From: an uncultured Verrucomicrobiae bacterium
Lineage (GTDB): Bacteria; Verrucomicrobiota; Verrucomicrobiia; Chthoniobacterales; Chthoniobacteraceae
Assembly (NCBI GenBank): GCA_963836755.1
Contig: CAWIKF010000002.1
Span: 864,001 to 928,000 of the forward strand
Length of the DNA stretch: 64,000 nucleotides
Reading direction: 5' to 3'
The notes under the pieces are model-generated. The model was not told where the DNA came from. It did no database searches and saw nothing but the letters and a program-made list of their open reading frames with translations. This document shows, piece after piece, positions 23,182-60,135 of this stretch (position 1 is the stretch's first letter; each line of letters starts with the position of its first letter). A program made the position numbers and the translations under genes.

Positions 23182-23427
23182 ATGGGACTGCAAAGGGCCA
23201 GAAAAACTTTTTCCGGCCCAGTTGAGACTTCAAACCCTCCGGAAAAACTTCGTCTGGCCATGTTGAAGCTTCACATCGTCCGGAAAAACTTCATCTGTGA
23301 GAAAAAAGGCCTCAACTCTCTCAGAATTGTTTCGTCCGGCCCTCCTGAAGCTTCAAACCCTCTGGAAAAACTTTTTCCAGCCTACTTGAAGCTTCAAACA
23401 CCCCGGAAAAACTTCGTCAAGCCTTCT
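23182..23427. repeat. Degenerate non-coding tandem array, 6 x 41 bp
   Basis: Units start at 23182, 23223, 23264, 23305, 23346 and 23387; consensus TGAAGCTTC-N8-CGGAAAAACTTC-N12. Confidence 0.85.
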
Positions 23428-23550
23428 ACAGCTGTAAAAACCCGCCTGGAGATTCCAGATGCCTTTCTGGAGCCTCGGATTCCCTCCAAGGCGAGGGCAT
23501 ATATTAATGTAAGCCGACATCATGATGCCTTCGTTAGCACCTATCCCTCA

Positions 23551-23578
23551 TTGACAAGATAAACCCGTCCGCCATTCT
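23551..23578 (+). promoter_or_regulatory. Putative sigma70 promoter (Pc-like) upstream of the attI-like site
   Basis: Perfect TTGACA (23551-23556), 16-bp spacer, weak -10 CATTCT. Confidence 0.45.
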
Positions 23579-23626
23579 CCAGCTTATGCCGACACAGACC
23601 TTGGGGCATTAGGCCGAGACCAGTCG

Positions 23627-23645
23627 GCCCAATAGGATGTTAGGC
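23627..23645 (+). mobile_element. attI-like integron simple site
   Basis: GCCCAAT (L box) + 5-bp AGGAT + GTTAGGC (GTTRRRY core), 22 bp before the ATG of a small gene. Confidence 0.6.
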
Positions 23646-23667
23646 GTTTCCTCGCGTTCATCCAAAT

Positions 23668-24000
23668 ATGATTACACTCATCGTTTTCGCTAGAGTAAAG
23701 CCGGGGACACGCGAAGAGTTGCTGGAAACCGGACGCGTGCTTTTCGATGAACTCTCAAAAGAGCCAACCTTCCTCGACGCATGGCTTCACACAACCGAAG
23801 ACGATCCCGATTTGATCGTCGTCTACGAGCGATGGAATGAGACGCAGGAGTCGTTTATTCGCGACCTGTTGCCGAAGCCCTTTTACAAACCATATCTCGA
23901 AGTTCTCGAACGAATCGGCCTTAGTCGTGAGATTCACTTCCTTGATGAGCGTCATGCGTGGCACGCACCAACAACGCAAGGACCAAAATCAAACCCATGA
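23668..24000 (+). CDS. Antibiotic-biosynthesis monooxygenase (ABM)/quinol monooxygenase-family protein
   Basis: ARVKPG...EPTF...DPDLIVVYERW pattern, 110 aa. Confidence 0.75.
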   Translation: MITLIVFARVKPGTREELLETGRVLFDELSKEPTFLDAWLHTTEDDPDLIVVYERWNETQESFIRDLLPKPFYKPYLEVLERIGLSREIHFLDERHAWHAPTTQGPKSNP

Positions 24001-24272
24001 AAGAATACATCATGATCAATCACGGAGTAGGTTCTCCCGCAAGCTGGGACGAATATTTCAAGATGCTCCACGATGAGGGACACATGATGGGAGGCTCGGC
24101 TTTGGATCACGGAATCTCTGTGAGAGACGGCAAGTTTTCAGATGCTCAGTCTCAAACCATTACTGGCTATATCGTGATACAAGCGGAAGACCTGGATGCA
24201 GCACGGAAGATTATGTTGCAGAGCCCGATCCACCAAGCGGGAGGAACAGTGGAGCTATTCACGTTGGTATGA
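23997..24272 (+). CDS. YCII-related protein
   Basis: GHMMGGSAL...ITGYIVIQAEDLDAA...SPI..GGTVE; ATGA overlap with the upstream stop. Confidence 0.7.
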   Translation: MKEYIMINHGVGSPASWDEYFKMLHDEGHMMGGSALDHGISVRDGKFSDAQSQTITGYIVIQAEDLDAARKIMLQSPIHQAGGTVELFTLV

Positions 24273-24315
24273 CAGGTCGCTCAGTGTCCCTCGGCTCGCT
24301 CTTCCCTATTTCAAT

Positions 24316-24540
24316 ATGAAACTCGTCCTGCTGCTGGTTATCCTACTCGCTGTGCTACCTATCGCCCTATGTCGGAGCATCGTGCGGCGTGTGTTACTCG
24401 CCGTGTCTGTGCTCGTGCTTGGCGCGCTGTGCGTTCACGTCCTCGCTGTTGCTTGTATATTCACCTACTCCCTCGTCCATGAGCGGGGCTCGGGAGGGTT
24501 TGCTCCCGTGGCGGTTCCCGCAACTCAAGGCTATCGCTAA
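24316..24540 (+). CDS. Small hydrophobic hypothetical protein (possibly truncated)
   Basis: 74 aa with two hydrophobic segments; ends 11 bp before the attC-like remnant. Confidence 0.45.
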   Translation: MKLVLLLVILLAVLPIALCRSIVRRVLLAVSVLVLGALCVHVLAVACIFTYSLVHERGSGGFAPVAVPATQGYR

Positions 24541-24551
24541 TCCTGTCCGCC

Positions 24552-24594
24552 GCCTAATCACGCGCGCCAGCGAGCAGAGGCGCGATTAAAGGCG
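24552..24594 (+). mobile_element. Degenerate attC-like remnant
   Basis: GCCTAAT-CACGC-GCGCCAGC (R''-5 bp-L'' layout) closing an imperfect hairpin with CGCGATTAAAGGCG. Confidence 0.4.
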
Positions 24595-24629
24595 ACAACT
24601 GAGATACACCTGTATTAATACGCTATTTT

Positions 24630-25040
24630 ATGCCGGCCGATTTTTTGATCGATGAGGAACAGCAGATGGTTTTCAGCTATGGATGGGGCACGCTTAGCTT
24701 TGCGGATGTGAAGGATCATCGGACCCGGTTGTTCGCCGATCCGAAATACAATTCTCGCTTCCGACAAGTCGCGAATCTCCTGGATGTGACAGAGATGAAC
24801 TTTACCAGCGATCAAATCTGGACGCTCGCAATCGAGACGGTCCTTTCGCCGTGGTCTCCTCGTGCAATCGTGGCTCCTCAGAAACATTTCGGTTTGGCCA
24901 GGATGTTTCATGGCCATTCTGAACGTCAAAATATTCTGGTCTTCCGCGAGCTGGAGAAAGCGGTGGAATGGGTGAAAATACCCTTCGATGCTGCGGTGAA
25001 GGCCTTTGACAAGATCCGTCAGAAGCACGCCTTGGCATAG
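24630..25040 (+). CDS. Hypothetical protein, SpoIIAA/STAS-SEC14-like fold
   Basis: RAIVA...FGLARMF...VFRELEKAVEW C-terminal pattern typical of this family. Confidence 0.6.
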   Translation: MPADFLIDEEQQMVFSYGWGTLSFADVKDHRTRLFADPKYNSRFRQVANLLDVTEMNFTSDQIWTLAIETVLSPWSPRAIVAPQKHFGLARMFHGHSERQNILVFRELEKAVEWVKIPFDAAVKAFDKIRQKHALA

Positions 25041-25125
25041 CGTCGTCGAATTCTTTTGGAGACTTAGGTCCAAAGCCGGGGCGCCCAAGCAGCCGTGTCC
25101 GCCGCTGGAAACGAACGTAGATGGA

Positions 25126-25329
25126 ATGAAAACTTTCCGAATCCCTTTGGCTGTGGCTTCCGTCTTGCTGGTCGCGGGATTTTCCGCGTGTCAAACCCAC
25201 CCCGCTTCATCGGCTCACGAGGAAGGCCGAAGCTTTCAACAGCAGACCAATCAGACGATGAATCCGATCACGCGGACTTATGAGCAGGAGCCGCCGTTTG
25301 GGCCGCGCTCGAACAAGAGTTACGACTAG
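25126..25329 (+). CDS. Small putative lipoprotein
   Basis: MKTFRIPLAVASVLLVAGFSAC signal peptide with lipobox. Confidence 0.6.
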   Translation: MKTFRIPLAVASVLLVAGFSACQTHPASSAHEEGRSFQQQTNQTMNPITRTYEQEPPFGPRSNKSYD

Positions 25330-25330
25330 C

Positions 25331-26455
25331 TCAATCCGCCGGTTGCATGGCCGGCGCGAAGACGAAGTCTCCGAGCCGCGCTTTGAGCGCATCGAGGCCC
25401 AACTCTTTTTCGGCTGAAACGGGAATGACTTCGCGCTTCCGAAAGCGGCGCTTGAAAGCGGCAAGATTTTCCTCGGCGCCGGGCAGGTCCATTTTGTTCG
25501 CAACCACGATCCACGGCCGGTCGGCAAGGGTCGGGTCGTAAAGTTTCAACTCTTCGCGCAGCTTGCCGAGATCATCGAGCGGGTTGCGTCCTTCGCTGCC
25601 GGCCATGTCGAGGACGAAAAGCAGAAGCTTGCAGCGGACGATGTGCCGGAGAAATTCGTGGCCGAGCCCGACGTTCAAGTGTGCGCCTTCGATCAAGCCC
25701 GGAATGTCTGCGACCGTGGCGCGCGCGTAGCCGGGAAAGTCCACGACCCCGATGACCGGGTGCAGCGTGGTGAAAGGATACGCAGCGACCTTCGGATGCG
25801 CTGCCGAGATGCTGCTGAGCAACGTGGACTTTCCCGCGTTTGGATAACCGACGAGGCCGGCATCCGCAATCGTGCGGAGTTCAAACAAAAATTCGCCTTC
25901 CTCGCCCGCTTCGCCCGGCGTGTATTCGCGCGGCACGCGGTTGCGCGAGCTTTTGAAATGGACGTTGCCTTTGCCGCCATCGCCGCCGCGGCAGAGCACA
26001 AATTCCTGCCCGTCCTGCGTGAGGTCGGCGAGCAATTCCAGGTTTTCCTGCGGGCGCGTGCCGGCCCCGGGCGCGGGCTCTTCATCGATCTCGCGCTCCA
26101 GATTGATCGCGCGCCCGATCATGCTGACCGGCGTCCCTTTCTCGCCCGTCTCCTTCTTCGGCATCCGATAAACGAGGGTGCCGACCGGCACGGCGACGAT
26201 CTTCGGTTTCGCCGCGCGGCCGTAGCAGTTTTTACTGCCGCCGTGCTCGCCGTCTTTCGCCTTGATGATCGGCTCGTAGAAAAAATTCGCTAGATTGTCC
26301 GTGTGCGAGCTCGCATGCAGAATGATATCGCCGCCACGTCCGCCGTCGCCGCCGTTCGGGCCGCCCTTCGGCACGAACTTCTCGCGCCGAAAGCTGACCA
26401 TGCCGCTGCCTCCGTCGCCGGCTTTGGCGCTGACTTTGATGTGATCGACGAACAT
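25331..26455 (-). CDS. obgE: GTPase ObgE/CgtA
   Basis: MFVD...AGDGG...FRREKFVPKGGPNGGDGG, GYPNAGKST, YPFTTL, DIPGLIEGA, NKMD. Confidence 0.97.
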   Translation of the reverse strand: MFVDHIKVSAKAGDGGSGMVSFRREKFVPKGGPNGGDGGRGGDIILHASSHTDNLANFFYEPIIKAKDGEHGGSKNCYGRAAKPKIVAVPVGTLVYRMPKKETGEKGTPVSMIGRAINLEREIDEEPAPGAGTRPQENLELLADLTQDGQEFVLCRGGDGGKGNVHFKSSRNRVPREYTPGEAGEEGEFLFELRTIADAGLVGYPNAGKSTLLSSISAAHPKVAAYPFTTLHPVIGVVDFPGYARATVADIPGLIEGAHLNVGLGHEFLRHIVRCKLLLFVLDMAGSEGRNPLDDLGKLREELKLYDPTLADRPWIVVANKMDLPGAEENLAAFKRRFRKREVIPVSAEKELGLDALKARLGDFVFAPAMQPAD

Positions 26456-26550
26456 GCGCCGGAATGTCGATGGGCGGCGCGTGCTTGTCGAATGCGGAAA
26501 TCAACTCGTCACTCGACACCCCGCGTGCGCCGCTTCTATCTTTTCGCCCG

Positions 26551-27585
26551 ATGAATCTCGTCAAAGTCGCCGTGCTCGGCGCGACAGGCTATTCCGGCGA
26601 AGAGCTGATTCGCATCCTGCTGCGGCATTCCGGCGTGGAATTGTGCGCAGTGACCTCGCGCACGCACGCGGGCAAAACGCTCGCGGAGATTTTTCCGCGA
26701 TTCGCCGCGAGGCAGTTCTCGGATCTAAAATTCATCGCATCCGAAGTGGCGGGCGTCGTCGCCAGCGGTGCGCAAATCGCGATTCTCGCGCTTCCACACG
26801 GCGCGGCGGCAGAATTCGCGAAGCCGCTCCTCGCCGCCAAACTGCGCGTGATCGATCTCTCCGCGGACTTCCGAATCAAAGACGCGCAAGTTTACGCCGA
26901 TTATTATGGCGCGCCGCATCCGGCGCCGGAGCTGCTCGCGCAAAGTGTCTACGGTTTGCCCGAACTTTATCGCGATGAAATTCGCGGCGCGCAGATCGTC
27001 GCTTCGCCCGGCTGCTATCCGACCAGCATTATTTTGCCGCTGCACCCGCTTTTGAAAAATCGGCTGCTCGATCCGCGCAGCATTTGCGTGACGAGTTTGA
27101 GCGGCGTCAGCGGCGCCGGACGCAAAGCCGAAGTCAACCTGCTCTTTGCCGAGTGCAATGAAAGTGTGCGCGCTTACGGCGTGCCGAAGCATCGGCATCT
27201 CGCCGAGATCGAGCAGGAACTCAGCGCCGCGGCCGATGAAACGGTCGTGATTAATTTCACGCCGCATCTCGTGCCGATCACGCGCGGCATCGTCTCCACG
27301 ATTTACGCGCAGCCGGCGCCAAACGTTGACGCGCAGGCCATTTTCAAAACGTTGACGGAAGTTTATAAAGCCGAAGCTTTTGTCCGCTTGCGAGGCGGAG
27401 AGGGCGAGGCCGACACGAAGAATGTGGCGAACACCAATTTCATCGACATCGCGTGGCGGCACGACCCGCGCACCGGCCGCGTCATTTTAATGAGTGCCGA
27501 GGATAATCTCGTCAAAGGCGCTTCGGGACAGGCCGTGCAAAGTTTGAACCTGATGTGCGGCTGGCCGGAGGAAACCGCGCTTTAA
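26551..27585 (+). CDS. argC: N-acetyl-gamma-glutamyl-phosphate reductase
   Basis: GATGYSG, ALPHG, IDLSADFR, PGCYPT, SGVSGAG, DNLVKGASGQA. Confidence 0.96.
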   Translation: MNLVKVAVLGATGYSGEELIRILLRHSGVELCAVTSRTHAGKTLAEIFPRFAARQFSDLKFIASEVAGVVASGAQIAILALPHGAAAEFAKPLLAAKLRVIDLSADFRIKDAQVYADYYGAPHPAPELLAQSVYGLPELYRDEIRGAQIVASPGCYPTSIILPLHPLLKNRLLDPRSICVTSLSGVSGAGRKAEVNLLFAECNESVRAYGVPKHRHLAEIEQELSAAADETVVINFTPHLVPITRGIVSTIYAQPAPNVDAQAIFKTLTEVYKAEAFVRLRGGEGEADTKNVANTNFIDIAWRHDPRTGRVILMSAEDNLVKGASGQAVQSLNLMCGWPEETAL

Positions 27586-27588
27586 AAA

Positions 27589-28800
27589 ATGTCGCACTTC
27601 ATCGAAATCTGCGGCGGCGTGACCGCGCCCGATGGCTTCATCGCCGGCAGCGCGTTTTGTGGAATCAAAACTTCCAACAAAGAAAAGCCGGACATCGCGC
27701 TGATTTTTTCATCGGCGCCCGCCGTTGCCGCGGCAACTTTTACGACGAACAAAGTCAAGGCCGCTCCGGTGCGCGTTTCGATGGCGCACATGCGCGGCGC
27801 TGACATTCGCGCGATCCTCGCGAACAGCGGCAACGCCAATGCCTGCACCGGCGTGAAAGGCATCCAGCACGCGAAGCGGATGGCGCTCGCGGCGGCGCGC
27901 GCGCTCGACCTGCGCGAGCGGCAGGTGCTGGTTTGTTCCACTGGGCGCATCGGCGTGGAATTGCCGATCGCGAAAATGGAGGAAACAATTTCGCGGATGC
28001 CAAAAGCGCTGCAAAAAGACGGCAGTCTCAAGGCCGCGCACGCGATCATGACGAGCGATACTTTTGCAAAGGAAGTCGCCGTCGAATTCAACCTTGATGG
28101 CAAGCGCGTGCGCATCGGCGCGATCGCGAAAGGCGCGGGCATGATCGATCCAAACATGGCGACGATGCTCTGTTTCATCACCACCGACGCGGCGATTGGC
28201 AAAAAAGATTTGCAGCGCGCGGTCTCAATCGCTGTCGAGCAATCGTTTAACCGAATCACAATCGATGGCGACATGAGCACGAATGACACCGTCATTGCGC
28301 TGGCGAATGGATTGGCCCGGAATCCTTTATTGAAAAGCGTCGGCGCCGATTCGAAAAAATTTCAGTGCGCACTCAACTACGTGACCGGCAAGCTTGCGCG
28401 AATGATCGTGGAAGATGGCGAGGGCGTGACGAAATTCATCGAACTGGCCGTGAAAGGCGCTGCGACTTACGAAGGCGCGCGCAAGGCGGCAGAGGCTGTC
28501 GCAAATTCCACACTCGTCAAATGCGCCTGGTTCGGCGGCGATCCGAACTGGGGCCGGATCATGGACGCGATCGGCTACTCGAGCGCGCGGATCCGCGAGG
28601 AGCTGGTCGATATTTATTACGATGGATTGATCGCCGTGAAAAATGGCCTCGCGAGCAAAACCCCATTTGCGGAGCTCGAGAAAATCGTGCGGCAGCCGAA
28701 GTTTACGATCACGATTGACCTGCACCTCGGCGCGGCAGATTACTGGGTTTTTACGACCGATTTGAGCACGCGTTACGTGGAGTTAAACATGGGCGAATAA
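27589..28800 (+). CDS. argJ: Bifunctional ornithine acetyltransferase
   Basis: NSGNANACTG, STGRIG, KGAGMIDPNMATML, DGDMSTND, DGEG, DPNWGR. Confidence 0.96.
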   Translation: MSHFIEICGGVTAPDGFIAGSAFCGIKTSNKEKPDIALIFSSAPAVAAATFTTNKVKAAPVRVSMAHMRGADIRAILANSGNANACTGVKGIQHAKRMALAAARALDLRERQVLVCSTGRIGVELPIAKMEETISRMPKALQKDGSLKAAHAIMTSDTFAKEVAVEFNLDGKRVRIGAIAKGAGMIDPNMATMLCFITTDAAIGKKDLQRAVSIAVEQSFNRITIDGDMSTNDTVIALANGLARNPLLKSVGADSKKFQCALNYVTGKLARMIVEDGEGVTKFIELAVKGAATYEGARKAAEAVANSTLVKCAWFGGDPNWGRIMDAIGYSSARIREELVDIYYDGLIAVKNGLASKTPFAELEKIVRQPKFTITIDLHLGAADYWVFTTDLSTRYVELNMGE

Positions 28801-28820
28801 TCGCGCAGGATCTTTTTTAC

Positions 28821-29699
28821 ATGTCTCAAGTCCCATTGCTGCATCGTGTCGAGGCGCTCGTCGAAGCGCTGCCTTACATCCAGAAATATCGCGGCCAGCT
28901 CGTCGTCATCAAATACGGCGGCAGCGCGATGGAGGATGAGCAAACGGTCGAGCGGCTGCTGCGTGACATCGTTTTTCTCGAGGCTGTCGGCATCAATCCC
29001 GTGCTCGTCCACGGCGGCGGAAAGGCGATCACCGACAAAATGCGCGAAGCGGGACTGAAGGCAAAGTTTGTGAATGGCCTGCGCGTGACTGATGAACAGA
29101 CGATACGCATCGTTGAACACGTGCTCGATGACGAGGTGAACCCGAAAATCGTCGAGAAACTCAACGAGTTCGGTGCGCACGCCGTCGGATTTTCCGGCCG
29201 GCGTATTTTTCGCGCGAGGAAATTGCCGCCGCAGTCCGACGCGCATCATGCTGCGGTCGATCTCGGCTTTACAGGCGAGGTGATCAGTTTGACAGTAGAT
29301 GAAGTGCGCGCGGCGGTGGCGCAGGAAAAAGTTCCCGTCATTTCGCCGATTTCGCAAGGCGAAGACGGCGCGACTTACAACGTGAATGCCGATCTCGCCG
29401 CCGGCGCGATTGCGGGCGCGCTGCAAGCTGCGAAGCTGGTTTACCTGAGCGACGTGCCCGGCATCATGCGCGACCCGGAGGAAAAAGATTCGCTGATTCC
29501 GTCGGTGAATCGCGAGATGATCGAGACGCTCATCGAGGACGAAGTGATCCAGGGTGGAATGGTGCCGAAGGTGAAATCGGCGCAGCTGGCGATTGAACAA
29601 GGCGTTAACAAAGTGCATTTGGTGGACGGGCGCGTGCCGCATTCGCTGCTGCTGGAAATTTTTACAAACGCCGGCATCGGCACGGAAATCATCGCCTGA
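28821..29699 (+). CDS. argB: Acetylglutamate kinase
   Basis: IKYGGSAM, VHGGG, GLRVTD, NVNAD, GGMVPKV, EIFTNAGIGT. Confidence 0.96.
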   Translation: MSQVPLLHRVEALVEALPYIQKYRGQLVVIKYGGSAMEDEQTVERLLRDIVFLEAVGINPVLVHGGGKAITDKMREAGLKAKFVNGLRVTDEQTIRIVEHVLDDEVNPKIVEKLNEFGAHAVGFSGRRIFRARKLPPQSDAHHAAVDLGFTGEVISLTVDEVRAAVAQEKVPVISPISQGEDGATYNVNADLAAGAIAGALQAAKLVYLSDVPGIMRDPEEKDSLIPSVNREMIETLIEDEVIQGGMVPKVKSAQLAIEQGVNKVHLVDGRVPHSLLLEIFTNAGIGTEIIA

Positions 29700-31012
29700 T
29701 GGACTTTGATTCCGCGGGAAAAACGCGCGCGCTGTTCGATCGCTTCGTCCTCCCGAATTATGGCCGATTTCCGCTCGAACTCGCGCGTGGCGCCGGTTGC
29801 CGCGTCTGGGATGAAGCAGGAAATGAGTATCTCGACTTTGGTGCGGGCATCGCCGTCTGCTCCATTGGTCACTGTCATCCGCGCGTGCTGGAGGCAATGT
29901 CGCAGCAGCTCGGCACGCTCGTTCACACCTCGAATTTATATTACACGCGGCCGCAGGGATTGCTCGCGAAGCGTCTGGTGGAGCTGGTTGGCGAGCCGGG
30001 AAAGATTTTTTTCTGCAACAGCGGTGCGGAGGCGAATGAAGCGCTTTACAAGCTCGCGCGGAAGTTTGGCAACGAAGGCGCTCCGCCCGCGCCGATTCAT
30101 ACCGTGGGCGAAGAAGTCGCGCCTGAGCAGAACCGCTTCGGCGTCATTTCATTCGACGGCTCATTTCATGGGCGCACGCTCGCGGGCATCGCGGCAACGG
30201 GTCAGGAAAAAGTAAAACGCGGGTTCGAGCCGATGGTCACCGGCTTTTCGCAAGTGCCATTCAATGACGCTCCTGCGCTGCTCGCCGCGATCCGGCCGGA
30301 CACCGCAGCCGTGCTGCTCGAGCCGATCCAGGGAGAAATCGGCGTCCGCCCGGCGACAGCACATTTTTTAACGACCGTTCGCTCGATTTGCGACGACCAC
30401 GGACTGCTTTTGCTCTTTGACGAAATCCAATGCGGGCTCGGCCGGACGGGCGATTGGTGCGGCTGGCGCAGCATCGCGCCCGACGTGGTGCCGGATGCTG
30501 TGAGCTGGGCGAAAGGCATCGCGGGCGGGTTTCCGCTCGGCGCGATCTGGGTGCGCGACAAAAAGATCGCTCTGAAAAATGGCGCGGAAATCTCGCTCGC
30601 AGATTTGCTCGGTCCGGGCTCGCACGGCACGACTTTCGGCGGCACGCCGCTCGTTTGCACCGGCGCGCTGGCGGTGCTCGACGTGATTGAAAAGGAAGGG
30701 CTGCTCGAAAATGCGCGCAACCTTGGCGCGCTTGCGCGAGAGCTGCTCGCGGAAATTGGCTCGCCGCTGATCCGTGAAATCCGCGGCGTCGGGCTCATGC
30801 TCGGCATCGAGTTGAGCGAAGGTTTTTCGGAAGAAACGAGCACGGGCGATCGCGCGCCGAGCTTGTGGCTGGTCGAGCGCTTGCACGCAGCGCGGCTGCT
30901 CACCGTCCCAAGCGGCACGCACGCGATTCGATGGCTGCCGCCACTGAATGTCTCGCGCCGCGAGATTGAGGAGGCCGTGGAGATTTTGCGCCGCGTGCTG
31001 TTTCAGGATTAG
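29699..31012 (+). CDS. argD: Acetylornithine aminotransferase
   Basis: NSGAEANE, SFHGRT, EPIQGE, DEIQCGLGRTG, AKGIAGG, HGTTFGG; arg operon context. Confidence 0.92.
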   Translation: MDFDSAGKTRALFDRFVLPNYGRFPLELARGAGCRVWDEAGNEYLDFGAGIAVCSIGHCHPRVLEAMSQQLGTLVHTSNLYYTRPQGLLAKRLVELVGEPGKIFFCNSGAEANEALYKLARKFGNEGAPPAPIHTVGEEVAPEQNRFGVISFDGSFHGRTLAGIAATGQEKVKRGFEPMVTGFSQVPFNDAPALLAAIRPDTAAVLLEPIQGEIGVRPATAHFLTTVRSICDDHGLLLLFDEIQCGLGRTGDWCGWRSIAPDVVPDAVSWAKGIAGGFPLGAIWVRDKKIALKNGAEISLADLLGPGSHGTTFGGTPLVCTGALAVLDVIEKEGLLENARNLGALARELLAEIGSPLIREIRGVGLMLGIELSEGFSEETSTGDRAPSLWLVERLHAARLLTVPSGTHAIRWLPPLNVSRREIEEAVEILRRVLFQD

Positions 31013-31056
31013 CGTTCGCTCGGCGTCAAAGTTTCTCCAAACGCGCGCGAGATTTG

Positions 31057-31479
31057 ATGATTGATCCGGTTTCAAAATATCAGGCGATCCGCGACGAGAT
31101 TCGCGCGGAACACAATCTCATCGCCAATCGGCTGACGTGGTTTGTCACGTCGCAATCCTTTCTCGTTTCGGCTTTCGCAATCTCGCGCGGCAACAACTTC
31201 ACCTGGTTTCACTGGTTCTCGACGACGCTGTTGCCACTGCTCGGGTTCGTTTCTGCGGCGCTCGTTCTTCCATCGATTCTCGGCGCCATCGCGACCATCA
31301 AATTGTGGCACGAAAAGCTGCATCGATTTTTTGAAATGCATCCCGACTTGAAAGCCGCGCTCGCGCTGAAGCGCCCGCCATGGATTGAAAATCGCGGGCT
31401 ACTTTTTCCGAAGATGATGCCGCTGCTCTTCGCCACGTTCTGGCTGGTCATCGGAATCGCGAGCCGTTTTTTGCCATGA
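31057..31479 (+). CDS. Hypothetical multi-TM membrane protein inserted in the arg operon
   Basis: EIRAEHNLIANRLTWFVTSQSFLVSAF followed by 2-3 hydrophobic helices. Confidence 0.7.
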   Translation: MIDPVSKYQAIRDEIRAEHNLIANRLTWFVTSQSFLVSAFAISRGNNFTWFHWFSTTLLPLLGFVSAALVLPSILGAIATIKLWHEKLHRFFEMHPDLKAALALKRPPWIENRGLLFPKMMPLLFATFWLVIGIASRFLP

Positions 31480-49459: not shown

Positions 49460-49486
49460 GTGAATGCGCTCTCAAGCTTAAAAAAA

Positions 49487-54105: not shown

Positions 54106-54572
54106 AGCTGCTGTTTTTGGTCACGCTGCCGCTTTACACGCTCGATCAAATCACGAAGTGGCTCGTCGTGCATTCGATACCATACGAATCCGGCCGCACA
54201 GTCTTCCCGGATTTTTTCGTGCTCGTCTATTTTGGAAACACCGGCGCGGCGTTCAGCTCGTTCACCAACAGCAACACGTTTTTCATTGTTTTATCAATGT
54301 TCGCACTGTGCGTGGTATCCGTTTATGCGTGGCGCGGAGCTTTTAGCGCATTCTGGACTCGCTTGGGAGTGGCGCTTCTGTGCGCGGGCGTGCTTGGAAA
54401 TTTGACCGACCGCATCGTCCGTCATCACGTCGTCGATTTTTTGCTGTTCGACCTGCACGTTCCGTTTGCGCACCCGTGGCCCGCTTTTAATGTCGCCGAT
54501 TCCTGCATCTGCATCGCGACCGTGTTGTTCATCATCACGTCGCTGCACACGCCCGATCGGCGGTCTCGCTAG
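54102..54572 (+). CDS. lspA: Signal peptidase II
   Basis: DQITK, NTGAAFS, GNLTDR, VVDF, FNVADS; ATGA overlap with ileS. Confidence 0.95.
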   Translation: MKLLFLVTLPLYTLDQITKWLVVHSIPYESGRTVFPDFFVLVYFGNTGAAFSSFTNSNTFFIVLSMFALCVVSVYAWRGAFSAFWTRLGVALLCAGVLGNLTDRIVRHHVVDFLLFDLHVPFAHPWPAFNVADSCICIATVLFIITSLHTPDRRSR

Positions 54573-54662
54573 GAGAACAATTTGGCGTGAATCACGCGCA
54601 GAGTCGGTTCGCTTCCCGATTCTAATATAGAACACAGATAATCGCTGGGAGGTGAAACTAAC

Positions 54663-54833
54663 ATGCTATCTTGGGCACTTACATTTCTAGTCATCGCTCT
54701 GATTGCGGGACTTTTGGGCTTCGTCGGCATTGCGGGAACCGCGGCATATATCGCAAAGGTATTGTTCGTAGTTTTCCTCGTGCTGTTCCTAGTCTCGTTG
54801 GTCATGGGGCGCAGAAGTCCGCCGCTGACTTAA
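54663..54833 (+). CDS. DUF1328 (YtjA-like) small membrane protein
   Basis: Not in the ORF track (56 aa): [56 protein letters not shown]; strong GGAGGTG Shine-Dalgarno. Confidence 0.9.
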
Positions 54834-54852
54834 CAAAAAATCGCATGAATTG

Positions 54853-54885
54853 AGCGGGCCGGAGAAATCCGGCTCGCTTTTTTTT
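54853..54885 (+). terminator. Intrinsic terminator
   Basis: AGCGGGCCGGA-GAAA-TCCGGCTCGCT stem-loop followed by a T-tract, between convergent DUF1328 and smc. Confidence 0.85.
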
Positions 54886-57800
54886 AGCCAACGGCGTGCT
54901 CGCTGTGGAGATTACCGGTTTTTCCAAAACTCTCTGCCAGGCTCAGCACCGGCGAAAAGTTCGCCGTGCCGATGATGTCTGACGATCCAATCGATTCTTC
55001 CCGCTTTGCAAAACGGACGCCGACAAGCTTTGAAATCCCATGCTCCTCCATCGTAACACCGTAGAGCGCGTCGGCTTTCGCGATGGTCCGCTTGTTGTGC
55101 GAGATGACGACGAACTGGCTCTGCGAGACGAATCGGTCGAGGATTTTGATGAACCGGTTGATGTTCGATTCATCGAGCGGCGCATCCATTTCATCGAGCA
55201 CGCAAAACGGACTCGGCTTGACCATGTAGATGGAAAAAAGCAGCGCCACAGCGGTCATCGTTTTTTCGCCGCCTGAGAGCAGCGAGATCGATTGCAACTG
55301 CTTGCCCGGCGGTTTCGCGATGATGTCGATGCCGCTTTCCAGCGGATCGCTTTCGTCGAGCAGGAGGAGATTCGCGTGCCCGCCGCCGAAAATCTCGAGA
55401 AACATTTCTTTGAAATTTACGCGCACCTGCTCAAACGTTTCCGCGAACATCTTCTTCGTCGTCGAATTGATTTTCGCGATGACGTCGAGCAGCTCGTTTT
55501 TTGAGTTGGTCAAATCCGTGAATTGTTGCTCGAGAAAAGTATGACGCTGCTCGAGCTCGTCGTATTCCTGAATCGCGTCAAGGTTGATAGGCCCCATCGC
55601 GTCGAGCCGCTGATTCATTTCCGCGACGATGGCTTCGATTTTTTCCCAATCGATGCGCACTTCTTCTGGAGGTTCATTCTCATTTTCCGAAATCGACTGC
55701 GCGTCCGCTTCCGCAGTTTCCGCGGACTGCCGCGCACGTTTGCTTTGTTCGCGCAGAGTGCAGTGCAGCGCGTAGTGGTCCGCCTTGAATTCGTGGAGCT
55801 CAATTTGGTAGCGCCGCATGATGTGCGCGGACAAATTTTCGAGCCGCAGTTGAAGTTGCGTTTGTTTAACTTCCCGTTGTCCGCGCTGATCGTGGCATTC
55901 GGTCAATTGCCGGCGCAGAATGCGAAGCGTCGCATCCAGCGATTCAATCTCGGATGCAAAGCCGCTTCGCTCTGCAATCAAAGTTCCGACGCGTAAATCC
56001 GCCTCAGCCGATTTTGCCCGCGTGCTCTCGATTTCCTGTTTAATTCTCGCCGATTCTGCGGCCAAAGTTTCCGATTTCTCGCGGTAGTTTTTGATTTCAT
56101 CCATCCGCTGCTCGACCAAATCGCGTAACTCCTGCAAACGCGCCGCCATCGGTTGACGCTGGTTGTTTAAACTCGCGTAGCGTTGCTTTTCCGTTGCGAC
56201 TTTGATGCGCAAATCATTCATCTCAGCGCTGCGGACCGATTCCTTTGCACGCAATCCGTCGAGTTCCGTTTGCAGAGAAGCTTGCCGCGACTGCAACTCC
56301 TCGAGGCTTGCCGCAGCTTGCGCGAGTTCACTTTCGCGCCCGCTCAAATGATCAACGGCTTCGGAGTGGCGGTTTTCAATGTTCTGGCGTTCCCGCTGCA
56401 AGTTTTCCGATTTGCCCGCAGTCTCTCTCGTTTCCCGCTCAATCGCCTCCAGCTGGCCGCACAAGGTCGAGACGCGCAGCGTGAGTTTCTGCATTTCCTC
56501 GCGGACCGCCTCGAGCCGTGCTTTGCCTGCCTCAAGCTCCTCGCAAACTTTGATGCGCTCAGCAACTTTGCCCGCGATGGATTTCTCGAGCGCCTCGACT
56601 TCAGTAGCGAGAGAGGTGATTTGGTTTTTGCGCTCGAGCATCGACGCGCCTGCCTCGCCCGTCGCGCCGCCGCTCAAGATACCGTCACGCGAAAAGCGTT
56701 CACCTGCCAGCGTGACGAGATGAAAGCCGTGCGCGCGCAGTCGGAACGCATCCTCGAGATTTTCCACAATTAAAACCCCGCGGAGCAGATGGAAAACAAG
56801 CGGTTCCACTTCAGAATCTGCCTTCACCCGATCCGCCGCCCATGCAATCGCTCCTTCTGGAAGCTCCGCCGAAATGTTTTCAGGCGCGGGAAAAAATTCG
56901 CGCAAAGCCAGCGATGCGCGTCCGAGTTTTTTGGCCGCGAGCGTTTTCAAGACGGATTCGGCGACCGCTTTGTCTTTCATAACGATCGTCTGCAGATTTT
57001 GTCCCAAGGCTGCCTCGATCGCTGGGATGAACTTTGGTTCCACCACGATGTGCGCCGCAAGCGCGCCGAGAATCGATGGCTTGAAAAAATCGCGATTGTC
57101 CAGCCCACGCAGCACAGCCTGCGTTCCTTCCGCAAAGCCCTGGCCGCTTTCATTCAATTGCCGCAGCACTTCGAGTCGCGATCCTTTTTCAGCAAGCGAG
57201 CGATTTTCCGCGGCCAGGATCTTGTCGATTTCCGCGACCTCCGCCGAGACCGTCTGCGTCTGTGTTTCCGCTTGCTGTGCCTGCTCCTGCTGCGAATGCA
57301 ACACGTTGGTCGCTTGTAAAACTTCTGCTGAAACCTCGTCGTGCTGTTGCGCCAGTCGCGCCGCGGTGCCGGCGAGCATTTCGATTTCGCCCTGCAAAAT
57401 TCCCATCCGCGTTTCGCTCCCATCGCGCAAATTCACGAGGCTCGAAATTTCGCCGCGCAAGCTGTGCAGGCGGCTTTCGAGTTTTGCGATCGAACCAAAG
57501 GCTTCCTTCACGGCGTTTTCGCGGTCCACCCGCTGAGCGCTGAGCGCGTTGACCTCGCGCATTTTTTCATCAAACCGTTCCTGTTCGCCGCGCAGCGTGT
57601 CGGAGATTTGCTCCAGCTCGAGATCGGTGTTTTCGATCTGCGTTTGCTGCACCGAAAGTTTCTCCTGAGCCGCGGCGATGTCGCGGCCGTAGCGATCCAT
57701 CAAAGTCGCAAACTCCGTGATTCGCTCGGTGTTGAAACCGATCCGGTTTTCCGCGTTCGCGATGTGATTCTTTAAATCCTGCACAGCCTGGCGCGCCGCA

Positions 57801-58651
57801 TTGAGAGCGGCTTCCAATCCCTCCAGTTGCCGTCGGCGACCTGCGATTTCCGATTCCTGATTCTCGATCTCGCTCTCGTGATTCGCCTGCACTTCGCGCA
57901 AACGCTCGATCTCCGCCTCGGTTTCGTGCCGCGCAGCCTCGTGCGTCTCAAATTGCTGGCGCGCATGATGCGTCTCCAAAGTCCTCAAATCCGCGAGCAG
58001 CACCTGATAGCGTCGCGCCTTCCCCGCCTGCCGTTGCAGCGAACCGATCTGGCGCTTCACCTCGCGGATCACATCCGTCACGCGCAGCAAATTCGCCTCG
58101 GTCGCCTCCAGTTTGCGCAGTGCTTCCCGGCGCTGGGATTTAAACTTTGTGATGCCAGCCGCTTCCTCGAAGATCGCGCGCCGATCCTCCGGCTTCGAGC
58201 TCAGGATCAAATCGATCTTCCCTTGTTCCATGATCGAGTAGGCGCTCCGGCCGATGCCGGTATCCATGAAAAGATTGTGGATATCGCGCAACCGGCACGG
58301 CGTTTTGTTGAGCAAATATTCCGACGCGCCGTCGCGGAAGACCCGCCGCGTGATTCGCACCTCATTATAATCGACGCCGAGTTCCTTTTCGCATTCCGCG
58401 AAAGTCAGCGACACCTCCGCCATTCCCAGCGCCGGCCGCGCATCGGTGCCGGAAAAGATGACATCCGACATCTCGCCGCCTCGCAAAGCCTTGGCAGATT
58501 GCTCGCCGAGCACCCATCGCATCGCATCGAGCACGTTGGATTTTCCGCAGCCGTTTGGCCCGACGATCGCCGTCACCCCCGGGTGAAAGTTGAGGACAGT
58601 CTTTGACGCGAAAGACTTAAAACCGACAAGTTCGAGGGAGTGGAGATACAT
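54884..58651 (-). CDS. smc: Chromosome segregation protein SMC
   Basis: GFKSFA, GPNGCGKSN, long coiled coils, hinge, LSGGEK, LDEMDAPLD. Confidence 0.97.
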   Translation of the reverse strand: MYLHSLELVGFKSFASKTVLNFHPGVTAIVGPNGCGKSNVLDAMRWVLGEQSAKALRGGEMSDVIFSGTDARPALGMAEVSLTFAECEKELGVDYNEVRITRRVFRDGASEYLLNKTPCRLRDIHNLFMDTGIGRSAYSIMEQGKIDLILSSKPEDRRAIFEEAAGITKFKSQRREALRKLEATEANLLRVTDVIREVKRQIGSLQRQAGKARRYQVLLADLRTLETHHARQQFETHEAARHETEAEIERLREVQANHESEIENQESEIAGRRRQLEGLEAALNAARQAVQDLKNHIANAENRIGFNTERITEFATLMDRYGRDIAAAQEKLSVQQTQIENTDLELEQISDTLRGEQERFDEKMREVNALSAQRVDRENAVKEAFGSIAKLESRLHSLRGEISSLVNLRDGSETRMGILQGEIEMLAGTAARLAQQHDEVSAEVLQATNVLHSQQEQAQQAETQTQTVSAEVAEIDKILAAENRSLAEKGSRLEVLRQLNESGQGFAEGTQAVLRGLDNRDFFKPSILGALAAHIVVEPKFIPAIEAALGQNLQTIVMKDKAVAESVLKTLAAKKLGRASLALREFFPAPENISAELPEGAIAWAADRVKADSEVEPLVFHLLRGVLIVENLEDAFRLRAHGFHLVTLAGERFSRDGILSGGATGEAGASMLERKNQITSLATEVEALEKSIAGKVAERIKVCEELEAGKARLEAVREEMQKLTLRVSTLCGQLEAIERETRETAGKSENLQRERQNIENRHSEAVDHLSGRESELAQAAASLEELQSRQASLQTELDGLRAKESVRSAEMNDLRIKVATEKQRYASLNNQRQPMAARLQELRDLVEQRMDEIKNYREKSETLAAESARIKQEIESTRAKSAEADLRVGTLIAERSGFASEIESLDATLRILRRQLTECHDQRGQREVKQTQLQLRLENLSAHIMRRYQIELHEFKADHYALHCTLREQSKRARQSAETAEADAQSISENENEPPEEVRIDWEKIEAIVAEMNQRLDAMGPINLDAIQEYDELEQRHTFLEQQFTDLTNSKNELLDVIAKINSTTKKMFAETFEQVRVNFKEMFLEIFGGGHANLLLLDESDPLESGIDIIAKPPGKQLQSISLLSGGEKTMTAVALLFSIYMVKPSPFCVLDEMDAPLDESNINRFIKILDRFVSQSQFVVISHNKRTIAKADALYGVTMEEHGISKLVGVRFAKREESIGSSDIIGTANFSPVLSLAESFGKTGNLHSEHAVG

Positions 58652-58689
58652 TTGCGCGTCAGGCTAAACGCGCGCCGAAAACGGCGCAA

Positions 58690-58737
58690 GCACAATATCT
58701 TGTGCTTTGCGGAACGGGGACGCACTACATAGCGGCA
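58690..58737. promoter_or_regulatory. Tandem NrdR-box-like operators upstream of smc
   Basis: GCACAATATCTTGTGC (58690-58705) and GCACTACATAGCGGCA (58722-58737), starts 32 bp apart; compared with consensus acaCwAtATaTwGtgt. Confidence 0.6.
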
Positions 58738-58792
58738 ACGCGCCGAATGCGGCAACCGCTCTTCCGAGCAACCAGATCAGCGCCGGGCGTGG

Positions 58793-59341
58793 CTACGCTT
58801 TGGTAAAAGTCAGCACGAGCACGAACTTTCTCCCCACCCATTTCGTTACCTCCGGCTTCCCCTCAAAACGGATGATTTGATGCCCAGCCGAAACGGGGAA
58901 CGCAAACGTAACCGCCTTGTCAAAGTCGGCCACCCCGTCCATTCCGATGATCTTGCAGGTCTCGAGCACCGGCGAATTCGTCGCGGAGTGCTCCGCGAAG
59001 CCGAGGAACTGCGTCTGGTCGAAATCCATTGTGTAGCGGACACGATTCCCCTCCTGAGTCGGCAAAACCGAAAGCGTCACACCGATGGGGAACGTCCCCT
59101 TGCCCGGCACCTCCAGAATGCGCGTCATCTCGATCTTGCACCGCACGCCAGAGCGCGTCGTCAGCGATGGGGGAGAGAGGACATCCACACCGCGCTGGTT
59201 GTAAAGCTTCGTGATGTCGCTTGGCACCTTGATCGTGGCCGGGACTTCAATCATTCGAGCGTGCACCGATACGGAAGGTTCCGCGGCCATGGCCCACCCT
59301 GGCAATGCCAGCGCGAGTAGGAGTGGGAGATTAATGTTCAT
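58793..59341 (-). CDS. Secreted hypothetical protein with secretin C-terminal-like segment
   Basis: Signal peptide; GVDVLSPPSLTTRSG..KIE...GVTLSVLP resembles the secretin core motif; only 182 aa. Confidence 0.6.
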   Translation of the reverse strand: MNINLPLLLALALPGWAMAAEPSVSVHARMIEVPATIKVPSDITKLYNQRGVDVLSPPSLTTRSGVRCKIEMTRILEVPGKGTFPIGVTLSVLPTQEGNRVRYTMDFDQTQFLGFAEHSATNSPVLETCKIIGMDGVADFDKAVTFAFPVSAGHQIIRFEGKPEVTKWVGRKFVLVLTFTKA

Positions 59342-59601
59342 GGGAGTAATGGATTAAAGGAACGATGAGTTTGACCTGACATCTCGAGACGCAGCAACAG
59401 GCTGGCGAAGTCAAGCGACGGTTGATTCATTGTCGCGTTTGATGAGCTTGGTTGCGGAACTTGCGGCCGTTGAAGATAAGTGCCGGTCCTAGGATTAGCT
59501 TCGCGCGGTATTTGAATAGCGTGTAAAAGTTATAACGATCTCGCGGAGGTGCGTGGGACTGCTTGGTTCTTGCATTGTTTGGACTAAAGGTTCGCGCAGT
59601 C

Positions 59602-59661
59602 GCCTAACGAGAACAAGCTTAACTACAGGCTGAGCTTATTAGCTGCATCGCATGGTTACTA
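59602..59661 (-). mobile_element. Degenerate integron attC site
   Basis: Minus strand: TAGTAAC-CATGC-GATGCAGC...GTTAAGC-TTGTTCTC-GTTAGGC (R''-5-L''...L'-8-R'), 60 bp. Confidence 0.6.
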
Positions 59662-59662
59662 C

Positions 59663-59818
59663 TCATCGGATATGTCGCGACATGAACTGATAGTGGCTCG
59701 ACGATGGGAGGGGGGTGATGTTGTCTTCGACTGCCTGATCGATAAAGCCGCGTTTGGCTCGTTTTGATGCGGGCGTCGGGGTTGGCGTGGGGTCTGGTGC
59801 TGGTGTTGAATTGCTCAT
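59663..59818 (-). pseudogene. Short 51-aa ORF, probable truncated gene ending at the attC
   Basis: Not in the ORF track: MSNSTPAPDPTPTPTPASKRAKRGFIDQAVEDNITPLPSSSHYQFMSRHIR; the stop is 1 bp from R''. Confidence 0.4.
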
Positions 59819-59925
59819 TTTGTTGGTTTTTTTGGTGGTTTGCGGGAGATTTTGCCGAATGAAGGCTGGAGTGACCTTTAAAGTGTCCGATTTCTGCTGG
59901 GATCGACCCCGAATTGGATTAAATG

Positions 59926-60135
59926 GATGTCCGATATCGTTTCCTGGACGTCCGATAGCCCTAAACAGGTATCTTTTCCCGTTTCCTCGATGTCCGTTCC
60001 GGTTTCAGCGGCGCCGGGTCCGGCTTCATCGACGGCCGTTGCGGCATAGGCGATGCCGGTTCCGGTCTCCACGATGTCGGTTCCGGCCCCATCGGCGGCC
60101 GATCCGGGGTGCGAGACGGGTCGGCGAATCGCTCG
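59926..60135. repeat. Degenerate tandem array, about 10 x 21 bp
   Basis: Units start at 59926, 59947, 59968, 59989, 60010, 60031, 60052, 60073, 60094 and 60115; consensus approx GAYGTCCGTTCCGGTTTCNNC. Confidence 0.8.

Follow-up and report, generated by a model that had tools for sequence, protein, structure and literature searches.

The window, a stretch of 64,000 nt of bacterial DNA, contains two places at which a phased tandem array lies beside integron-type sites and small genes, and the question these islands raise is whether such arrays are a part of cassette-capture loci, as the initial annotation proposed, or belong to something else. The origin and expression of integrase-less cassette clusters are treated as open questions in the passages of PMC4889954 used here, which define a CALIN by the presence of two or more attC sites with no intI close by; these passages and parts of 10.1101/2022.09.11.507474 discuss how such clusters might come about through deletion, rearrangement or insertion at secondary sites.

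Both islands are flanked by housekeeping genes, identified by Pfam as ilvD and obgE for island 1 and smc and ppk1 for island 2, and both are lower in G+C, as had been claimed (0.50–0.53 at 23001–25000 and 0.50 at 59501–60000, against approximately 0.6 in the surroundings; Table 1). They lack intI locally, but the genome, which is Chthoniobacterales-like, does hold one: a search prompted by the same annotation found a single intI above the NCBIfam cut-off, at C2:765056-766015 (474.5 bits), intact and about 120 kb away. The layout of a complete integron, with intI beside attI and cassettes, is seen in neither island, and the two-attC rule keeps both out of the CALIN class, since each has at most one attC, and that one decayed. 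Island 2 is a SALIN, having a single attC with a coding sequence and no integrase nearby, as judged by a genome-trained matrix and a covariance model. A first regular-expression scan for attC was uninformative (73 matches versus 69 in shuffled DNA), and matrices were therefore used in its place. Rfam, which lists described families only, gave no match at gathering score in the 64,000 nt, none of 13 proteins was matched by PADLOC (library of 2023) at E ≤ 0.01, and in an empty-site comparison with two genomes of the same genus neither island junction was syntenic.

Table 1. Coordinates of features in and around the two islands (positions within the window).
Feature	Position	Strand	Remarks
ilvD, dihydroxy-acid dehydratase gene flanking island 1 on the left	21228..23009 (putative start)	+	Pfam ILVD_EDD_N, ILV_EDD_C
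G+C-rich hairpin	23069..23109	-	Kind found behind 41-bp-type helical+FN3 genes
Sigma-54-type (-24/-12) promoter motif	23145..23160	-	Score 18.5 of 19.5; points away from array 1
Array 1	23198..23427	- (orientation inferred from sigma-54 motif)	41-bp period, ~5.5 units
Putative cassette promoter (TTGACA, 16 nt, CATTCT)	23551..23578	+	Kept in copies C2:1310k, 1315k, 1774k
attI-like site	23608..23645	+	Inverted repeat, L box, GTTAGGC; predicted crossover 23639/23640
Cassette-like gene, ABM family	23668..24000	+	Pfam PF03992, E 2.7e-8
Cassette-like gene, YCII family	23997..24272	+	Pfam PF03795, E 3.6e-6
Small hydrophobic ORF, ending just before attC remnant	24316..24540	+	Read from sequence; frame without Pfam match
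attC remnant, 5' half only	24552..24575	+	PWM 17.6, without 3' half
136-aa ORF	24630..25040	+	Unmatched in Pfam and PADLOC
obgE, flanking island 1 on the right	25331..26455	-	Pfam GTP1_OBG
smc, flank of island 2	54884..58651	-	Pfam SMC_N, SMC_hinge
182-aa gene, signal-peptide-like start (by eye)	58793..59341	-	Downstream of attC; no Pfam or PADLOC match
Decayed attC, genome's 60-bp family	59602..59661	-	PWM, covariance model, fold
First 36 codons of 250-aa all-helical family gene	59711..59818	-	Twin comparison
Array 2	59924..60107 (trimmed core)	-	21-bp period, ~8 units; upstream of truncated gene
ppk1, divergent flank of island 2	60419..62563	+	Pfam PP_kinase domains; start from simple gene model

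Both arrays are real. TRF places array 1 at 23201–23418 (period 41, 5.3 copies, 64% matches; lag-41 identity 0.56) and array 2 at 59976–60086 (period 21, 5.3 copies; identity 0.53, 0.55 and 0.56 at lags 21, 42 and 63). The period of 41 stands for array 1, but the 20+21 sub-period ascribed to it is weak as sequence identity (0.35 and 0.33 at lags 20 and 21); the unit is made of two different palindromes. The genome-wide periodicity scan that had been proposed returned 67 arrays after filtering, all with periods of 21, 42 or 41 and with both window arrays among them. The period spectrum contains 63, 60, 52 and 49 regions at lags 21, 42, 63 and 84, 15 at lag 41 and 8–9 at the related lags 82 and 83, and at most 8 at all remaining lags within 8–89. 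Array density is about 2 per 100 kb in the source genome and 2–4 in three relatives. The arrays do share phasing and not sequence; the 67 fall into 37 sequence families, with all gene orientations represented. Dyads are modestly enriched (4.9 versus 4.35), and A/T tracts occur in 27 of the 67 array units against 7.7 expected. A 10.5-bp curvature signal was sought and rejected, pooled identity being 0.24 at lags 10–11 with no 10–11-bp sub-period. Coding heptad repeats were likewise rejected, codon-position variation in the 58 arrays of period 21 or 42 equalling the column-shuffled null; several arrays have no stop-free frame at all, and a period of 41 breaks the frame.

What the arrays do accompany is a gene family. 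Signal-less genes for helical or helical+FN3 proteins follow 21 of the 67 arrays, and the other 46 have no family gene alongside; relatives contribute 26 non-own loci with the island-2 gene type, 17 of them preceded by a 21-, 42- or 63-bp array, and at 14 of 31 loci with the 41-bp gene type the DNA upstream is best matched by a lag of 41. With -24/-12 (GG/GC), the sigma-54 promoter consensus, used for scoring, a motif of at least 18 was found at 15 of 32 loci of the 41-bp gene type versus none of 32 antisense, and the genome holds rpoN and four strong sigma-54 activator genes. As a general feature of arrays the motif was ruled out: scores of at least 18.5 occur at only 4 of the 67, all of the 41-bp type and all pointing outward, and the 21/42-bp arrays are without it. 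The sigma-54 layout, -24 GG/-12 GC upstream of a gene in a genome with rpoN, is thus found for the 41-bp type only, and the period is tied to the subfamily. Close paralogues (74% protein identity) carry unrelated arrays (unit identity 0.48), and two different genes are served by a single array, which together argue against strict self-recognition.

The model of a 348-aa family protein, searched as a whole, has an FN3 fold as its last domain (Z 14.3, rmsd 1.8, 91 residues), alike in structure to fn3 (PF00041). Fold searches with the 250-aa helical protein gave no specific solved structure (best Z 10.0, generic bundles), and a cluster containing DUF6261 (PF19775) is a distant Atlas neighbour of it (0.87, 32% of members); a literature search on DUF6261 found nothing relevant. 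None of the nine family proteins scanned has a Pfam match at cut-off. Neither Pfam nor fold searches of the family proteins listed a Rep- or ParR-type family, a result compatible with DNA binding. Conserved arginines are present in both subfamilies.

Island 2 retains a remnant of this family. Its array lies inside a 496-bp block (59713–60208) that is 96% identical to C2:661368-661863, and the "short ORF" noted behind it, although present, is a truncated family gene whose residues 1–36 have 97% protein identity to an intact twin at C2:660721-661473. The truncated gene is joined to unrelated DNA before the decayed attC, and since the junction is not a GTT site, cassette insertion was ruled out as the cause of the truncation. 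The attC itself belongs by sequence to the genome's 60-bp family (the halves score 21.1 and 34.5 under a matrix built from other sites, where the shuffled genome gave nothing ≥16; covariance model 53.4 bits, next match in the window 14.2), but is decayed in structure: the bottom-strand fold of 59602–59664 has z +0.82, versus -2.78 for an intact family copy, the covariance model marks 10 of 21 pairs as non-standard, and the bottom-strand fold with R box, L box and extrahelical bases is not formed. The site is a family member by sequence that is probably no longer a good substrate.

Island 1 has no gene of this family. Left of array 1 stand a sigma-54-type motif and a hairpin typical of the family, with no gene between the two. 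The hairpin matches C2:763428-763469 and C2:1340295-1340336 (85.7% over 42 nt, E 8e-5), both just behind 41-bp-type helical+FN3 genes, with no further copy at E < 0.1, and, to judge from its sequence, it is likely the terminator of a deleted gene of this kind. The pairing first described stands, but its geometry needs correcting: array 1 most likely faces the minus strand, away from the attI. Its unit weakly resembles that of the C2:1315k array (0.54, p 0.007 uncorrected for 8 comparisons); a plain copy of the intact integron's array (C2:764k) was ruled out, unit identity being 0.44 and not significant.

On the other side of array 1, the proposed attI-like site is laid out like the genome's intI-linked attI, in its L-box/GTT geometry as in the inverted copy upstream, with a hairpin z of -2.44 in the fold test, and its L box and GTTRRRY head co-oriented cassettes, the CNAA–GTT gap being 6 bases and not 5. 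By sequence layout it is an attI, with recombination by IntI putative. The TTGACA promoter proposed ahead of it fails a consensus scan, its sole support being the conserved spacing to a CATTCT-like box in copies of the block. Four more copies of the TTGACA+attI block (76–82% identity) occur in the genome; attI copies of this type lie at the head of an attC cluster at C2:1310k and inside one at 1774k, and one at C2:1426k runs through an intI start codon. Elsewhere the block had no exact motif match in metagenome contigs and only 24–31-nt matches, in 5 of 400 genomes of the order, none within 1.5 kb of an intI or an array. Of the attC-like remnant at 24552 only the 5' half-site was recovered, scoring 17.6 with the retrained matrix and falling below the threshold of 17 with the first. 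A GGNPRL stretch, taken by eye for an intI N-terminal remnant, had no match to protein or DNA profiles of nine intI starts; with no remnant detected, descent of island 1 from a complete integron is conjectural.

The pairing extends well beyond the two cases for which the initial annotation had allowed coincidence. Four genomes of two families were compared, a sample that is not independent and in which some source-genome loci are mutual copies. Of their 54 attC clusters, 28 have an array in the 3 kb upstream and 2 in the 3 kb downstream, with approximately 3.7 expected per side; the three relatives alone give 16 upstream and 0 downstream. Enrichment beside att clusters is therefore almost solely on the 5' (attI) side. 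The co-location test suggested earlier, with arrays placed at random in intergenic gaps, was positive at 3 kb (12 of 20, versus 7.0–7.9 expected, p 0.011–0.024) but not significant at 1 kb (6 of 20, versus 5.4–6.5 expected). Where a complete integron has an array, it lies behind intI, about 1.1 kb from attI; among relatives the module, the array or both stand directly behind intI at 4 of 29 intI loci, and intI or an intI fragment lies upstream of the 41-bp gene type at 6 of 44 loci, scattered over the tree. Literature searches, covering sources outside subscription papers and bioRxiv supplements, found no description of this polar array–integron link.

The period of the arrays, their lack of codon bias, their tie to the gene family and their polar position beside cassette clusters are observations, as are the truncated gene of island 2 and the motif and hairpin without a gene in island 1. 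We suggest, with somewhat more confidence than doubt, that the array is a non-coding, fixed-period element of the helical/helical+FN3 family, used for phased multi-site protein binding at the gene's promoter, that such modules sit at integron heads, and that deletions left the window arrays geneless. Proteins would bind along one side of the helix, once per two turns where the period is 21 bp and once per four where it is 41/42 bp. Sigma-54 activators normally bind upstream of the -24/-12 promoter, and in the 41-bp type the array would take that place. Modules and integron heads, either intI–attI or a solo promoter+attI block, would have met repeatedly and not once. In line with this, genome G002 has one attI type behind unrelated arrays, and the source genome has another attI type behind both a 21-bp module and a 41-bp array. 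Island 1 may once have read gene, sigma-54 promoter and array leftward, back to back with promoter–attI and cassettes rightward, the gene then being lost; island 2 may have read array, gene and cassettes in one direction, losing the 3' part of the gene and most of the first cassette. The single intI at C2:765-766k could serve these att sites in trans, and the target of the array would be the gene it belongs with and not attI. As formulated, the model states the polarity and leaves out what draws modules to integron heads.

An unlikely alternative is that the array is itself a working part of integrase-less heads, with phased proteins helping a distant IntI at attI, or silencing or activating the cassette promoter, and with the gene dispensable. 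The polarity of 28 versus 2 would follow, an att site is no more than 3 kb away from 6 of the 9 41-bp arrays, array and attI are kept without gene or intI at several loci (window island 1, C1:703k, and L177 and L182 of genome G002), and solo promoter+attI blocks recur behind unrelated arrays. Against it, an att site is found at 3 kb or less from only 14 of the 67 source-genome arrays and not from the other 53, and 23 of the 54 clusters, some cut by contig ends, have no array inside or within 3 kb on either side. The array-to-attI distance is not fixed, varying from ~200 bp to >1 kb with a gene or intI between at many loci, and array 1 faces away from its attI. A cis-element specific to cassette-capture loci, as first proposed, is not supported either, given the 53 arrays without a nearby att site, the arrays' habit of preceding a separate gene family, the orientation of array 1 and the place of the array behind intI in complete integrons.

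It is decidedly unlikely that IntI inserts cassettes or promoter+attI blocks at secondary chromosomal sites (the attG route) and that expression preserves those landing behind array-driven promoters. The parts of 10.1101/2022.09.11.507474 consulted report that cassettes insert outside att sites and are expressed beside resident promoters, the genome has its intI, and many modules are co-oriented with cassettes; however, divergent modules are common too (island 1, C2:764k, 1340k, 1471k, L180, L189, L193, L198), many sites carry attI-like sequences matching the intI-linked attI and are not arbitrary genomic sites, and the island-2 junction is not a GTT crossover.

It is highly doubtful that the arrays are RNA scaffolds or selfish or mobile repeats, spreading as autonomous copies with the gene and non-autonomous ones lacking it, perhaps moved by the family protein, and targeting integron heads. 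In favour of this, one gene-bearing member is accompanied in several of the 37 array families by orphan copies that match it over the array alone, which weakens our preferred reading, since a plain promoter element should not persist so. A border motif, CAGAGTAA, adjoins 16 of the 67 arrays and occurs 4 times in 280 kb of intergenic DNA elsewhere, and the arginines conserved in both subfamilies could also fit; but the motif is absent from most arrays and was not seen at either window array, no target duplication or fixed ends were seen by eye in five array families, and neither the 348-aa nor the 250-aa protein model showed a recognisable nuclease, recombinase or polymerase fold. Other mobile elements do target att sites. 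Finally, it is extremely improbable that arrays and att sites merely gather together in long intergenic, horizontally acquired stretches, for although unsigned proximity is only modestly enriched at 3 kb and not significant at 1 kb, shared hotspots predict equal sides, whereas the downstream count stays at background.

Several known systems resemble parts of this picture. CALIN, SALIN and sedentary chromosomal integrons likewise hold attC-bounded small genes without an adjoining intI, with intI elsewhere in the genome; unlike them as described in the accounts drawn on here, whose passages mention no such element, the present loci have in many cases retained a promoter with an attI-like site, and an array or module stands at their head. 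Plasmid iterons and ParR/parC-type operators are direct repeats about two helical turns apart beside a gene. The arrays share this spacing (21, 42, 41) and position and a probable role in protein binding, but they are chromosomal, number about 67 per genome, change freely in sequence while keeping the period, are not shared by paralogues and have no recognised Rep, ParR or helix-turn-helix protein alongside. Sigma-54 enhancers typically have one to three activator sites. The 41-bp arrays likewise lie just upstream of a -24/-12 motif, in a genome with rpoN and activators, but they have five to nine units of a sequence not common to loci (mean unit identity 0.44, versus 0.42 for shuffled units), and the 21/42-bp arrays are motif-less. 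REP/BIME-type repeats are dispersed, intergenic, partly palindromic and present in many copies, as are the arrays, which occur in all gene orientations in a genome with a Y1 transposase gene; unlike REP/BIME, the arrays have no genome-wide consensus, run head-to-tail with a strict period and are tied to a gene family.

The integrase-less clusters studied here are headed, with strong polarity, by an element that detection software does not seek, which makes the array a marker for integron heads and offers a direct test of their origin. A widespread and unstudied array–gene module is now placed in a defined genetic context, and it is unusual, whatever the role, for non-coding DNA to turn over completely in sequence and yet hold its period exact to the base. 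It is conceivable, if unlikely, that Chthoniobacterales run a distributed integron, with one intI serving about ten solo promoter+attI heads that are scattered over the chromosome and marked by arrays bound by the helical/FN3 proteins, which would direct docking or control recombination or expression; the integron platform would then have, in the array–gene module, a fourth component that has gone unrecognised.

Across the genome under study (G000; 3.18 Mb in four contigs, the window being C2:864001-928000; the names of homologues suggest Chthoniobacterales, Verrucomicrobiota), a period scan at lags 8 to 89, counting every region with 55% or more identity over 105 nt, gave 63, 60, 52 and 49 regions at lags 21, 42, 63 and 84, and 15, 9 and 8 at lags 41, 82 and 83; each remaining lag gave 8 or fewer. 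Once weak and low-complexity candidates were removed, 8 borderline ones among them, 67 arrays were kept, of period 21 (44 arrays), 42 (14) or 41 bp (9), with a median length of 239 bp and 37 sequence families among them. The set showed no codon-position bias, and no 10.5-bp sub-period was found in the units; dyads are modestly in excess, and A/T tracts are found in 27 of the 67 units, where 7.7 would be expected. Both arrays of the initial annotation belong to this class, with lag identities of 0.56 (array 1) and 0.53-0.56 (array 2), and the reduced GC of both islands and their housekeeping flanks (ilvD/obgE around island 1, smc/ppk1 around island 2) were likewise borne out. A border motif, CAGAGTAA(A), lies beside 16 of the 67 arrays, themselves of unrelated sequence, and occurs 4 times in 280 kb of intergenic DNA elsewhere; some arrays seemingly have it at both ends, inverted.

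Directly downstream of 21 of the 67 arrays lies a gene of one family (186-348 aa; all-helical or helical with a beta domain; without a signal peptide, as judged by eye), and we call array and gene together a module. AlphaFold models of two family proteins are confident (pLDDT 90.9 and 87.9): one has long helical hairpins and an FN3 domain (Z 14.3), and for the other, a helical protein, a fold search gave no specific match. Pfam gave one sub-threshold fn3 match among nine members, PADLOC gave no match to the family proteins, and their Atlas neighbours are unnamed clusters. Array period tracks gene subfamily. The 250-aa type of island 2 has a 21-, 42- or 63-bp array upstream in 17 of 26 loci other than its own, several of the remaining 9 ending at contig borders, and for the 348-aa type, which had a usable start in 32 of 44 loci, 41 is the best upstream lag in 14 of 31; 20 units of its arrays are nearly without common sequence (identity 0.44 vs 0.42 when shuffled). 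Two different family genes are each preceded by a copy of a single array, the copies matching at 89% identity over the array and some 280 bp beyond, and two paralogues 74% identical have unrelated arrays. Three near-identical 21-bp arrays have no common flanking sequence; the C4 copy alone has a family gene, and the other two precede small unrelated genes. Another 21-bp array lies directly 3' of the stop codon, not in front, of a 159-aa gene whose family was not recognised.

The proposed co-location of arrays with att sites, checked against random placement, proved only modest as unsigned proximity and strongly one-sided as signed position. In this genome an array was present within 3 kb of 12 of the 20 attC loci; random placement predicts 3.7 for any junction, 7.0 for gaps of at least 150 bp (p 0.011) and 7.9 for gaps of at least 300 bp (p 0.024), and at 1 kb the gap nulls are not exceeded. 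An att site lies no more than 3 kb from just 14 of the 67 arrays, namely 6 of 9 with period 41 vs 8 of 58 with period 21 or 42, or, by gene, 7 of 21 gene-bearing vs 7 of 46 orphan arrays. Counted by side, an array lies within 3 kb upstream (on the attI side) of 12 clusters and downstream of 2, of 25 in this genome, and the corresponding counts in three relatives are 9 vs 0 of 13, 4 vs 0 of 10 and 3 vs 0 of 6, in total 28 vs 2 where 3.7 and 3.5 are expected; three further clusters have an array inside. The p values computed for these counts are too strong, kin and duplicated loci not being independent. What carries the link is the side. For the relatives, attC sites were located by pattern, 7 isolated two-mismatch matches were excluded, and the loci used were 25 new ones and three at integrons; the control was 1.1 Mb chosen from large contigs (32 arrays, 2.25-4.0 per 100 kb), from which one stretch with an attC half was reassigned to the att loci.

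The attC of island 2 is a member of the genome's 60-bp attC family, both by matrices trained on 20 other sites (scores 21.1 and 34.5; nothing at 16 or above in the shuffled genome) and by a covariance model derived from 14 further sites (53.4 bits), but it is decayed rather than intact (fold z +0.82 vs -2.78 for an intact copy). The attC-like remnant of island 1 amounts to a 5' half and no more, while the attI-like site matches the geometry of intI-linked attI sites, and its promoter+attI block has copies at four other places in the genome. The absence of intI holds for the islands and fails genome-wide: among 8 matches one is above cut-off, about 120 kb from island 1 and accompanied by attI and cassettes. 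By the definitions in PMC4889954 and 10.1101/2022.09.11.507474, the att side is already known in kind: island 2 is a remnant of the SALIN type, island 1 is an orphan attI head, and the genome's intI lies at a distance from both.

The genome has some eleven attI-like sites, falling into four sequence types, and one intI. At C2:1426k the integron's attI is present as a copy that extends past the start codon of intI before ending abruptly; a run of short 7- and 14-bp repeats upstream of it bears no relation to the phased arrays. In cassette clusters, hybrid sites have the island-1 promoter+attI block fused behind an attC 5' half. One relative (G015) has five intI matches, each at the head of a short cassette run, four of them inside about 50 kb of its contig C5.

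Coordinates of features (window positions counted from its start; all others by contig)
Feature	Genome	Position
Array 1, period 41	window	23201-23418
Sigma-54-type motif, - strand	window	23160-23145
attI-like site, island 1	window	23608-23645
attC-like remnant, island 1	window	24552
Array 2, period 21	window	59976-60086
attC, island 2	window	59602-59661
Block with array 2 and the truncated gene	window	59713-60208
Its 96%-identical counterpart	G000	C2:661368-661863
Border-motif examples	G000	C1:29994, C1:228983, C1:630455, C2:713758, C2:751974
attI-like sites	G000	C2:766k, 887k, 1052k, 1267k, 1310k, 1340k, 1426k, 1471k, 1698k, 1774k; C1:703k
Hybrid attC-half/promoter+attI sites	G000	C2:1052818-1052751, C2:1774672-1774509
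7-/14-bp repeats (L058)	G000	C2, about 1426000-1426250
Single array before two family genes	G000	C1:273583-274243, C1:615768-616415
Paralogues with unrelated arrays	G000	C1:228k, C2:1903k
Near-identical 21-bp arrays	G000	C1:645609, C2:1007292, C4:55943
Array 3' of 159-aa gene	G000	C2:1045896-1046542
Relic of island-1 array end	G000	C2:1524605-1524970
Period-22 array (L040)	G024	C1:2048-2551
intI matches (L024, L026)	G015	C5:168000-221078
intI match (L023)	G015	

Beside array 1 lies a sigma-54-type motif, scored against the sigma-54 consensus. Scores of at least 18.5 occur at just 4 of the 67 arrays, all of the 41-bp type, the other three preceding 348-aa-type genes or a remnant, and in relatives 15 of 32 loci reach 18 vs 0 of 32 antisense; the genome encodes rpoN and four sigma-54 activators. 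A hairpin 36 bases past the island-1 motif has its sole other copies behind 348-aa-type genes. As the motif is on the - strand and the hairpin is typical of these genes, array 1 most likely faces left, away from attI and towards a gene that has been deleted. This arrangement is found with its gene intact at C2:1471k, without intI, and at C2:764k, where intI lies between array and attI. Array 1 is similar to the C2:1315k array only, and weakly (0.54), and a search for an intI remnant in island 1 detected none, so that simple descent of the island from the intact integron is disfavoured. Elsewhere in the genome, 79 nt of the end of the island-1 array survive as a relic (82% identity) accompanied by a degenerate sigma-54-like motif; the relic lies ahead of a solitary attC that follows a pyruvate-kinase-like gene (named by eye).

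The stretch containing array 2 is 96% identical to one that has the 250-aa gene intact downstream of its array. In island 2 only 36 codons of the gene are left; the junction where it breaks off is no GTT crossover, and the DNA from there to the decayed attC is unrelated. The simplest reading is a deletion that took away the 3' portion of the gene together with most of a first cassette.

A module lies behind intI at this genome's complete integron and in 4 of 29 relatives' loci (31 of 33 intI matches, 60 relatives; many loci end at contig borders). Of the 348-aa type's 44 loci, six carry intI or part of it upstream and four others have attC halves, and on a quick tree, in which two of nine labelled rows are duplicates, such loci cluster no more than shuffled labels. 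Since the position at the integron head is filled by different subfamilies in both orientations, and since in the relative G002 one promoter+attI block (about 130-150 bp) follows three arrays or modules that are unrelated to each other, and in this genome one attI type follows a 21-bp module at one place and a 41-bp array at another, we infer repeated juxtaposition of arrays or modules with integron heads, not a single ancestral platform.

From these sequence patterns we lean towards a model in which the array is a putative binding element: proteins would bind it at phased multiple sites and act on the promoter of its own gene, the module would lodge at integron heads, and deletions would yield the layouts of islands 1 and 2. 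The 46 orphan arrays and the swapping of arrays among paralogues speak against it, and it leaves the polarity without a cause. Iteron and enhancer arrays are the comparison systems here, and the module may be likened to them in its way of working by spacing and sigma-54 motif only. Conceivable, if rather unlikely, is a distributed integron, in which one intI would serve scattered attI heads marked by protein-bound arrays, with the module as an integron component. It is unlikely that the array itself has a direct role at integrase-less heads, and quite unlikely that secondary-site insertion (a route described in 10.1101/2022.09.11.507474) followed by selection for expression accounts for the pairing. 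That arrays are mobile elements or RNA is improbable, even with the border motif at 16 of the 67 in its favor, and the one-sided array-att pairing is very improbable as a coincidence. A search of the non-subscription literature returned no description of the module or its integron link; this link is what is new here.

In the relative G024, intI and an FN3-type family gene are separated by an array of period 22 (0.99 identity), the only one among loci scanned for that lag.
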